Virus record (IMG/VR): IMGVR_UViG_3300037465_000347 | Location: 420-64,419 of that record | Length of the DNA stretch: 64,000 bases | Direction: 5' to 3' (one strand) | Source of the DNA: a virus | Notes under the pieces: generated by a model | The model's database searches: none | What the model saw: only the letters and a program-made list of their open reading frames with translations | What the model was told of the DNA's origin: nothing | Made by a program: the position numbers and the translations under genes | Part shown: positions 5,068 through 5,998 of the stretch, one piece after another | Position numbering within the stretch: the first letter of the stretch is position 1 | How the letters are laid out: every line of letters starts with the position of its first letter

Positions 5068-5664
5068 ATGAGCTATCTATAGAACCATCTAATTAAGCAA
5101 ATGAAAGAGTGTCCACAAACGGATACTCAATCTGTGTATGAACACGGTGTCTCTGTAAAAGAGCACATTTTTGAATTGATTTCATTTTTAAAAACAGGAC
5201 AAGTGCCTGAAGGTTGGAGATTACCTGACTGGATGCATATGTATCGAGAGCAGATTCTAGCCTCGCTTCTTCTAGAGGATATCATCAAAGCCTACGCAGT
5301 CTTCCATGATTGTGGTAAACCTTATTGTCTAATAATAGATGATAAGGGCAGAAGACATTTTCCTGACCATCCAGAGATATCACACAACGTTTGGCTTGCT
5401 GTTAGCAATAACAAAACGATTGCTAAGTTAATTCTTATGGATATGAAAATTCATACTATGAAGGCAGCAGATGTTGAAGAATTCTGTCAGCATCAAGAAG
5501 CTATCACTCTCCTCATTGCAGGATTAGCTGAAGTACATAGTAATGCAAAGATGTTTGGCGGCATTGATTCTGAATCCTTCAAAATCAAATGGAGTCAAAT
5601 TAACAAACGTGGCAAAGCAATTTGTCGTAAACTATTTGGAGAACATCATGTGTCTATAGGTTAA
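5068..5664 (+). CDS. HD-domain phosphohydrolase with in-frame amber at codon 5 (MSYL*NHLIKQMKEC...)
   Basis: VYEHG...FHDCGKP...HFPDH HD motifs; ATG5068 is in frame with ATG5101; TAG at 5080-5082; GATATATA-N7-ATG signal at 5053. Confidence 0.8.
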
Positions 5665-5998
5665 AGAAGGCGATAAGCTTTATGTTATTACTCGTGCAGA
5701 TTTGGAACCGGGTTATCAAGCAGTGCAGAGTATGCATGCATTGAGACAATTTACGGCAGAGCATCCTGAGGTCGATAAGGCATGGTTTGAGCAATCAAAC
5801 TATCTTGGACTTCTTTCGGTGCAGAATGAACAAGAACTCCTGCAGTTGTTAGAACAAGCAAACAACCAAGGGATTCAAGCTTCAGCTTTCCGAGAACCCG
5901 ATATTGATAATCAAATGACAGCCATTGCGTTATCACCTGGCCCTAAGTCTAAAAAGCTTTGTAGCCGTTTACCACTAGCATTAAGAGGTAAGCCATGA
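5648..5998 (+). CDS. Peptidyl-tRNA hydrolase 2 (Pth2)-like protein with in-frame amber at codon 4 (MCL*VKEGDKLYVITRADL...)
   Basis: KLYVITRADLEPGYQAVQSMHA...FREPDIDNQMTAIALSP...LPL is a Pth2-type fold. GGAG SD 6 nt before ATG5648; TAG at 5657-5659. The ORF track start (5702) omits the first conserved strand. Confidence 0.85.

Follow-up and report, generated by a model that had tools for sequence, protein, structure and literature searches.

How can a gene be expressed if a stop codon closes it three codons after its start? This question is raised by a stretch of viral DNA of 64,000 nucleotides (positions 420 to 64,419 of the IMG/VR virus record IMGVR_UViG_3300037465_000347; hereafter the window), in which a gene for a protein of the Pth2 (type 2 peptidyl-tRNA hydrolase) fold opens with ATG at position 5648 and carries an in-frame TAG as its fourth codon. 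The original prediction held that this gene cannot be complete unless the TAG is read through, and proposed an autoregulatory loop in which a minigene prone to peptidyl-tRNA drop-off sits on the very enzyme that removes peptidyl-tRNA. The first claim is upheld by the present analysis. With respect to the cause, a different answer is favoured: the TAG is likely decoded by suppressor tRNAs encoded by the phage, so that the Pth2-fold protein would be made only when those tRNAs are active.

The leader, the TAG and the Pth2-fold domain

The Shine-Dalgarno sequence, its spacing and the TAG at codon 4 were confirmed by direct reading (Table 1), and GGAG or AGGAG with equal spacing precedes the Pth2-like gene in the closer relatives. 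As the GGAG lies 18 nucleotides from the codon that follows TAG5657, it is too distant for a start at that codon, which supports the assignment of the Shine-Dalgarno sequence to ATG5648 and of the tripeptide Met-Cys-Leu as the product of failed read-through. Beyond the gate, as the start codon, leader and TAG are called here, the frame continues as TAG5657 GTT AAA GAA GGC GAT AAG CTT TAT GTT ATT ACT CGT GCA GAT TTG5702, and direct reading finds no ATG, GTG or TTG between TAG5657 and TTG5702, a distance of 14 codons without a start.

Table 1. Features of the window that bear on the TAG-gated gene (positions counted from the first nucleotide of the window; ORF, open reading frame; tmRNA, transfer-messenger RNA)
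Feature	Position	Strand	Basis and remarks
tmRNA gene, phage-encoded	3632..3982	+	Rfam RF00023, 104 bits
HD-like gene with early TAG (ATG5068 AGC TAT CTA TAG5080)	5068..5664	+	adjoins the Pth2-like gene upstream
Shine-Dalgarno sequence GGAG	5638..5641	+	6-nt spacer to ATG5648; read directly
Three-codon leader ATG TGT CTA (Met-Cys-Leu)	5648..5656	+	read and translated
In-frame TAG, the gate codon, next base G	5657..5659	+	conserved as TAG in 12/12 relatives found first and in 40/63 clusters
Pth2-fold domain coding region	5660..5998	+	Pfam PF01981; ends with TGA at 5996-5998
TTG picked by the mechanical ORF finder	5702..5704	+	rejected as true start
tRNA(CUA), copy 1	6757..6830	+	ARAGORN; discriminator G73, CCA encoded
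tRNA(CUA), copy 2	6841..6913	+	ARAGORN; A73, no CCA

The match to the PTH2 family (PF01981; 33.9 bits against a gathering cut-off of 23, E 3.9e-8, profile positions 2-104 of 115) starts at the K of KLYVI, that is, upstream of TTG5702. With residues counted from V5660, K6, L7, R12 and D14 are invariant in an alignment of 15 sequences that includes homologues without a TAG, and a profile search with this alignment aligns the solved archaeal Pth2 chains 2zv3, 1rzw and 1wn2 from K6 on. AlphaFold2 models the read-through product with a predicted local distance difference test score (pLDDT) of 95.8 and with residues 6-12 (KLYVITR) as the first beta-strand, whereas for the product from TTG5702 the pLDDT falls to 85.1 and the partner strand of the missing first strand is lost as well. 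In Foldseek the top 14 matches are all Pth2 or Bit1 structures (template modelling scores 0.59-0.82, crystal structures 0.71-0.82, probability 1.00).

A start at TTG5702 was therefore rejected, since it lies downstream of the invariant K6, L7, R12 and D14 and of the first strand and yields the poorer model. Sequence, family match and alignment thus agree with the original prediction that the KLYVITR strand lies between the TAG and TTG5702 with no canonical start codon in between, and the homologues carry this strand as well. The evidence supports the conclusion that a complete Pth2-fold protein is not obtainable without read-through of TAG5657.

Assignment to the fold is distinct from assignment to the enzyme. 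Matches at the equivalog level fail (26.3 bits against a cut-off of 126 for NCBIfam PRK04322 and 21.6 bits against 82 for TIGR00283). In the profile alignment, the second Lys of K-G-K in 2zv3, 1rzw and 1wn2 aligns with the Tyr of the phage motif G-Y-Q, so that the Lys is not kept; opposite the Asp of D-A-G stands the invariant phage E-P-D, so that an acidic residue is kept. Lys18 and Asp86 are presumably the catalytic residues of Sulfolobus Pth2, Lys18 being the Lys in G-K-G-K. Some relatives have a second in-frame TAG inside the domain, at codon 25 after K6 in loci L096 and L099 and at codon 32 in L160; in L096 and L099 it aligns with Q or E of the motif H-A-L-R-Q-F, a weak hint at the residue inserted.

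Conservation of the gate and its suppressor tRNAs

In every one of the 12 related viral loci found first (38-95% identity), codon 3, 4 or 5 is an in-frame TAG and a tRNA(CUA) lies no more than about 3 kb away. In a subsequent profile-based scan, for which 80 of 135 viral matches were fetched with 10-kb flanks and grouped into 63 clusters at 90% identity, 40 clusters show the order ATG, zero to three codons (seven in one), TAG and domain, which establishes the TAG as a real feature of the gene. A TAG-reading tRNA lies within 10 kb in 38 of these 40 gated clusters (36 with CUA and 2 with UUA), the other two loci being cut close to the gene. Eighteen clusters lack the stop and have an ordinary start (for example M-A-T-I-K-M-G-D-K-L), 15 of them with no suppressor nearby. 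A well-supported clade (L148, L149 and L159) has an in-frame TGA before the domain (at about position 10000 in L148 and L149) with no start after it, and a tRNA(UCA) is found 2.6-3.2 kb from the gene in two of these three loci, L148 and L149. The ochre-type tRNA(UUA), which would also read UAG, was seen at 50073-50149 in relative G002 and in L108 and L126, where it is the sole suppressor near the TAG-gated gene.

Among the 40 distinct gate sequences the start is always ATG. All but one have a leader of 1-4 codons, all but one have a purine directly behind the TAG (A in 31), and 37 have no canonical start between TAG and domain. The codon before the TAG is varied, with 16 different ones, such as CTA, ACG, AAG, TCG and ACT; the codon after it is ATT in 25 gates and GTG or ATG in a few lineages. 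Over the gate-bearing subtree of the protein tree, which spans about 16 amino-acid substitutions per site, the TAG is never lost although the flanking leader codons vary. This persistence argues for selection on the TAG itself, as a position where every stop, or every sense codon, served equally well would have drifted. Conserved, in sum, are the TAG, its nearness to the ATG, the purine that follows and a tRNA(CUA) gene nearby, and the gate is found in phages that differ strongly in base composition, with and without Shine-Dalgarno-led starts.

Homologues without the TAG begin M-A-T-I-K-x-G-D-K-L and translate under table 11, which indicates that leader and TAG occupy the position of coding residues. 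Database proteins such as MCLQVKEGDKLYV, which start M-C-L-Q-V-K-E-G-D-K-L, are products of the same genes for which the gene caller put Q for the TAG; translation with Q for TAG (code 15) was confirmed on the four contigs checked. In the Mycobacterium phages Catera and Phabba (L166 and L167, both at 5974-5982), ATG TAG GTG or GTG TAG GTG stands before the Pth2-like gene. The adjacent tRNA (L166 6605-6678; L167 6465-6535) is annotated as Arg(tct) and read by ARAGORN as CUA, with an apparent anticodon loop of 9 nt or one of 7 nt closed by a mismatch.

Both tRNA(CUA) genes of the window lie 0.8-1.2 kb downstream of the Pth2-like gene. Copy 1 scores 47.2 bits with the Rfam tRNA model (cut-off 29) and folds alone as a cloverleaf (z -3.6). 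Copy 2 scores 65.7 bits and belongs to a suppressor family common to the relatives, with 82-90% identity to the tRNA(CUA) of L002, L004, G002 and G003. A pyrrolysine tRNA was considered and rejected: the ARAGORN label 'Pyl' reflects the anticodon only and both copies fit the general tRNA model, pylS not having been searched for. Among 221 phage tRNAs compared with the suppressors, none stood out clearly as their parent isoacceptor.

The gene immediately upstream, which encodes an HD-like protein, has a gate of its own, and ATG, 2-6 codons and TAG are kept in all seven relatives that have the HD-like gene. A conserved ATG5101 six codons past its TAG would allow a short form without read-through, and the frame from there (5101-5664, stop TAA) differs from that of the Pth2-like gene. 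A frameshift fusion from HD to Pth2 was rejected, as distant relatives hold the ATG..TAG leader without an upstream HD gene. The two proteins are joined elsewhere: the N-terminal part of the PHROG family phrog_14850 matches the Pth2-like protein and its C-terminal part the HD protein, and the cultured Tenacibaculum phage pT24 (NC_049383.1; L168 4947-5900) has a Pth2-HD fusion ORF behind a single ATG AAA TAG, with 32% identity to the Pth2-like and 40% to the HD protein of the window. An annotated tRNA-Sup lies 2.6 kb upstream of the fusion ORF, and the first strand is missing from the deposited coding sequence gp293, whose start was placed at an internal ATG. By sequence, the pT24 fusion ties the two proteins functionally, which in the window are encoded by two genes, each with its own gate.

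With respect to the genetic code, a simple greedy gene call on the plus strand of the window (n=90) gave 57 genes ending in TAA, 33 in TGA and none in TAG, and the long genes are free of TAG and intact in code 11. Coverage by stop-to-stop ORFs of at least 100 amino acids is 0.885 under code 11 against 0.919 with TAG as sense, and taking TGA or TAA as sense gives a larger rise; coverage by called genes goes from 0.892 to 0.899 in the window and from 0.925 to 0.935 in G002. Four relatives fetched whole for this analysis, among them a complete genome of 480 kb with its structural regions, are all compatible with the standard code; in the complete relatives coverage is 0.90-0.93 under code 11, to which TAG as sense adds at most 1.5%. 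The HD and Pth2-like leaders are the only credible plus-strand genes in the 64 kb that need TAG as sense. The lack of TAG terminators, the intact code-11 genes and the gain of about 1% in the 480-kb relative suggest that TAG is reserved rather than generally reassigned.

In a screen for further conserved in-frame TAGs (all-against-all BLAST of ORFs with TAG translated as X) shadow frames dominated the output. The TAGs at 27429 and 51960 of the window were discarded as trivial upstream stops without an ATG leader, and for the early-TAG candidates at 16906, 28523, 54627, 34066 and 4017 from this screen no conserved signal was established. A gap of 600 bp without a code-11 ORF at 17503-18108 could be coding or RNA; the frame 17520-17918 is open only with six TAGs as sense, three of which are matched in G002.

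Release-factor genes were seen in two relatives. G002 encodes a full-length homologue of release factor 2 (RF2; L034:6809-7903, i.e. G002 406809-407903; prfB, 383 bits) with the SPF and GGQ motifs, as a single ORF without the usual frameshift. Its GC (guanine plus cytosine) content of 0.41 is phage-like; at a distance of 12 kb from the gene the content jumps to 0.55-0.60. The final 60 kb of G002 (420001-480000), with a GC content of 0.49-0.61 and ordinary TAG terminators, are host flank or a chimeric assembly, and according to IMG/VR the record is a provirus. In relative G004, an ORF of 174 residues (L075:5960-6484) matches the C-terminal half of release factor 1 (RF1) only (prfA positions 165-338) and thus resembles a truncated release-factor gene.

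The window itself, with a GC content of 37.7%, is a 64-kb piece of its record, and the completeness of 15% estimated by CheckV indicates a fragment of a very large phage. The gated genes lie in a translation island of four tRNA-Thr genes, the tmRNA, the HD-like and Pth2-like genes, the two tRNA(CUA) and a tRNA-Arg. The tRNA-Thr row (2699-3128) reads UGU, GGU, GGU and CGU, with a spacer of 113 nt ahead of the fourth; in the relatives AGU stands in place of the second GGU. The tmRNA was missed by ARAGORN, which did detect those of relatives L003, L007 and L008; the tag ANDNAFAMAA is visible in the window ORF 3602-3754 and in the tmRNAs of the relatives. Three small ORFs (83, 61 and 117 amino acids, the first two Cys-rich) at 5995-6750 separate the Pth2-like gene from the suppressor tRNAs and have no match in Pfam or PHROG. 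A scan of 4400-7300 for promoters and terminators gave no more sites than shuffled sequence.

Proposed read-through of the gate and the rival explanations

The anatomy of the leader, the conserved TAG, the suppressor tRNAs close by, a code that is otherwise standard and the requirement for the N-terminal strand are most simply accommodated by a competition at the gate. Ribosomes would begin at ATG5648 by means of the GGAG and meet the UAG after Met-Cys-Leu; where RF1 wins, only the tripeptide would result, and where a charged suppressor tRNA wins, the full protein of 116 residues. Output of the Pth2-like protein, and probably of the long form of its HD partner, would then depend on suppressor activity, and the gate would work as a switch of translation or as a dose-coupler. 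Ribosomes with very short nascent chains are known to terminate inefficiently, and E. coli genetics has shown that a 3' purine favours amber suppression. A stop 1-4 codons past the start and followed by a purine should consequently give the suppressor an advantage over the release factor and limit the size of the abortive product, which would provide a clean suppressor-dependent switch at small cost.

Several observations weigh against this proposal. It presumes that the tRNAs are expressed, that a host synthetase charges them (with Gln most likely, by precedent) and that they decode the gate codon; a phage glutaminyl- or glutamyl-tRNA synthetase was looked for and not found, and the anticodon stem of copy 2 is weak, with mismatches 27-43 and 31-39. 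In more distant relatives 7-11% of the long genes end in TAG (16 of 143 in G004, 17 of 238 in G005), so that strong suppression would be costly there. Four gate-less clusters (three with no upstream stop, namely L113, L118/L122 and L123, and in addition L164) keep an adjacent tRNA(CUA), and gating alone is thus insufficient to explain the pairing. As the state of the gate changes only about twice on the protein tree, the association of gate and suppressor draws on hardly any independent events and lacks the power to test co-evolution statistically. The ATT, GTG or ATG that may follow the TAG leaves room for re-initiation. Finally, with the Lys of G-K-G-K replaced by Tyr and equivalog scores far under the cut-offs, the product is best described as a divergent Pth2 with putative peptidyl-tRNA hydrolase activity.

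Of the rival explanations, leader-ORF coupling survives best, though it is unlikely. Ribosomes would terminate at the TAG and re-initiate at the next codon or near it, with no suppression involved. This would suit the gates in which ATT, a weak bacterial start, follows the TAG (25 of 40), the Mycobacterium cluster C phages with ATG TAG GTG or GTG TAG GTG, where the Shine-Dalgarno sequence is spaced for the GTG, and L165, where ATG follows immediately. In the window, however, the next codon is GTT, a non-start, and no ATG, GTG or TTG occurs for 14 codons. Moreover, any stop in any frame would do for re-initiation, yet 40 of 40 clusters have an in-frame TAG, in genomes in which TAA and TGA together account for about 90-100% of the terminators. 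The residue behind the TAG, Ile or Val, is likewise kept in the TAG-less homologues (..T-I-K..), which points to a constraint on the protein.

The autoregulatory loop of the original prediction, in which the three-codon leader is prone to drop-off and a shortage of Pth feeds back on Pth2 synthesis as RF2 does on prfB, is given little credence. The leader is indeed shaped like a bar-type minigene, with a start, 0-3 codons and a stop on a gene of the Pth fold, and in E. coli minigenes of this type lose peptidyl-tRNA by drop-off and become toxic under Pth limitation. The loop nevertheless lacks a step that leads from low Pth to more UAG read-through, as the stop senses RF1 against the UAG-reading tRNA, and not Pth. 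The last sense codon, which decides which tRNA is trapped, varies among 16 codons, which is evidence against an effect tied to one codon; a leader of the same kind stands on the HD gene, which is no Pth; the type of stop in every case matches the anticodon of the neighbouring suppressor tRNA; and with Tyr at the position of the catalytic Lys the Pth activity itself is only putative. The two tRNA(CUA) genes 0.8 kb downstream, of which the original prediction made no use, offer a simpler cause.

Still less probable is a genome-wide code 15, in which TAG would be a plain Gln codon and its position at the gate without special meaning. Suppressor tRNAs, the absence of TAG terminators in the window and RF2 in a relative are hallmarks of TAG-recoded phages (Borges et al., bioRxiv 10.1101/2021.08.26.457843), and the second TAG of L096 and L099, aligned with Q or E, would agree with such a code. 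The ORF statistics of the window and of the four whole relatives contradict general reassignment, with no credible gene beyond the two leaders that requires a sense TAG; in addition, TAG and CAG, if synonymous, would drift at the gate position, and no such drift is seen. That the TAG is a defect, as a lone in-frame stop in an otherwise intact gene might suggest by its likeness to a fresh nonsense mutation, is refuted by the occurrence of the same codon in the same place both in the genome of a cultured phage and in assemblies made independently from dozens of samples, and by the clear purifying selection on the downstream frame.

If read-through by the phage suppressor tRNAs is accepted, the gate may serve to couple the capacity for tRNA recycling or ribosome rescue to a UAG read-through imposed by the phage, which would fit the tmRNA in the island and the RF2 of the close complete relative. 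Alternatively, the enzyme might act on the suppressor tRNA itself. It is a more tentative idea, and a doubtful one at present, that huge phages of several host phyla carry a self-contained switch made of a suppressor tRNA and a Pth2-fold gene opening with the matching stop, the HD partner sometimes being fused, with an output proportional to read-through and an enzyme that either clears the tRNA and ribosome damage due to read-through or limits read-through by acting on the suppressor tRNA. Were this so, it would represent a natural feed-forward or feedback controller of genetic-code switching.

With respect to significance, a gate that works as read would constitute a natural, compact and portable translational switch of a tRNA and a three-codon leader. 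It would mean that phage suppressor tRNAs can regulate in genomes that otherwise use the standard code, which bears on the origin of stop-codon reassignment. Pth2-fold and HD proteins would be linked to the handling of suppressor tRNAs, with pT24 as a cultured system. Annotation is also corrected, as gene callers shorten such genes (gp293 of pT24; TTG5702 here) or silently put Gln for the TAG.

Comparison with known systems

Recoding of TAG to Gln (code 15) with phage suppressor tRNAs is known from Lak, crAss-like and other phages, where in-frame stops have been proposed to hold translation back as long as the suppressor has yet to be produced (Borges et al., bioRxiv 10.1101/2021.08.26.457843); no hydrolase is mentioned in that work. 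The window resembles these phages in that tRNA(CUA) is encoded, TAG is avoided as a terminator and RF2 is present in a close relative. In the recoded phages, however, the stops are spread across many late and lysis genes and code 11 fails, whereas here the code is standard and the stop occurs only in the first 2-5 codons of one enzyme gene and its HD partner, beside the tRNA.

The analogy with RF2 that the original prediction drew holds in so far as prfB, likewise a gene of the translation-factor kind, is interrupted early by an in-frame stop, and bypass of that stop varies with the efficiency of termination; beyond this it holds only loosely. In prfB the bypass is a +1 frameshift and the product recognises its own stop, a true feedback. 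In the window, the domain stays in the frame of ATG5648, the bypass needs a separate tRNA, and the product has no known action on UAG termination, Pth2 enzymes acting on free peptidyl-tRNA and not on stop codons.

The bar minigenes of phage lambda and similar minigenes, which cause peptidyl-tRNA drop-off and are toxic in Pth-deficient E. coli, share with the leader a start, 1-3 sense codons and a stop behind a Shine-Dalgarno sequence. They are free-standing, though, with no conserved domain in frame, and they act according to their last sense codon, a position that is variable in the phage gates. Viral UAG read-through, as for the A1 protein of Q-beta and retroviral gag-pol, also consists of a stop that is sometimes decoded to give a longer protein; it adds a C-terminal extension at low frequency by means of host tRNAs, whereas here the stop comes ahead of the entire protein and a tRNA dedicated to it is encoded alongside.

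The protein itself is like archaeal and eukaryotic Pth2 (PF01981; PDB 2zv3, 3erj, 1wn2, 1xty and 1q7s) in fold, length and the motifs R-x-D-L, Q-x-x-H-A and T-A-I-A-x-x-P, and unlike them in having G-Y-Q in place of the G-K-G-K Lys, E-P-D in place of D-A-G and equivalog scores far under the cut-off. Jumbo phages were already reported to carry Pth2 (Iyer et al. 2021, PMC7824862), with no mention there of stops or suppressors, and the suppressor tRNAs of recoded phages are well known. A published account of a Pth2 gene gated by a stop that its neighbouring tRNA reads was found neither in that article, nor in Borges et al., nor by full-text searches of the literature.

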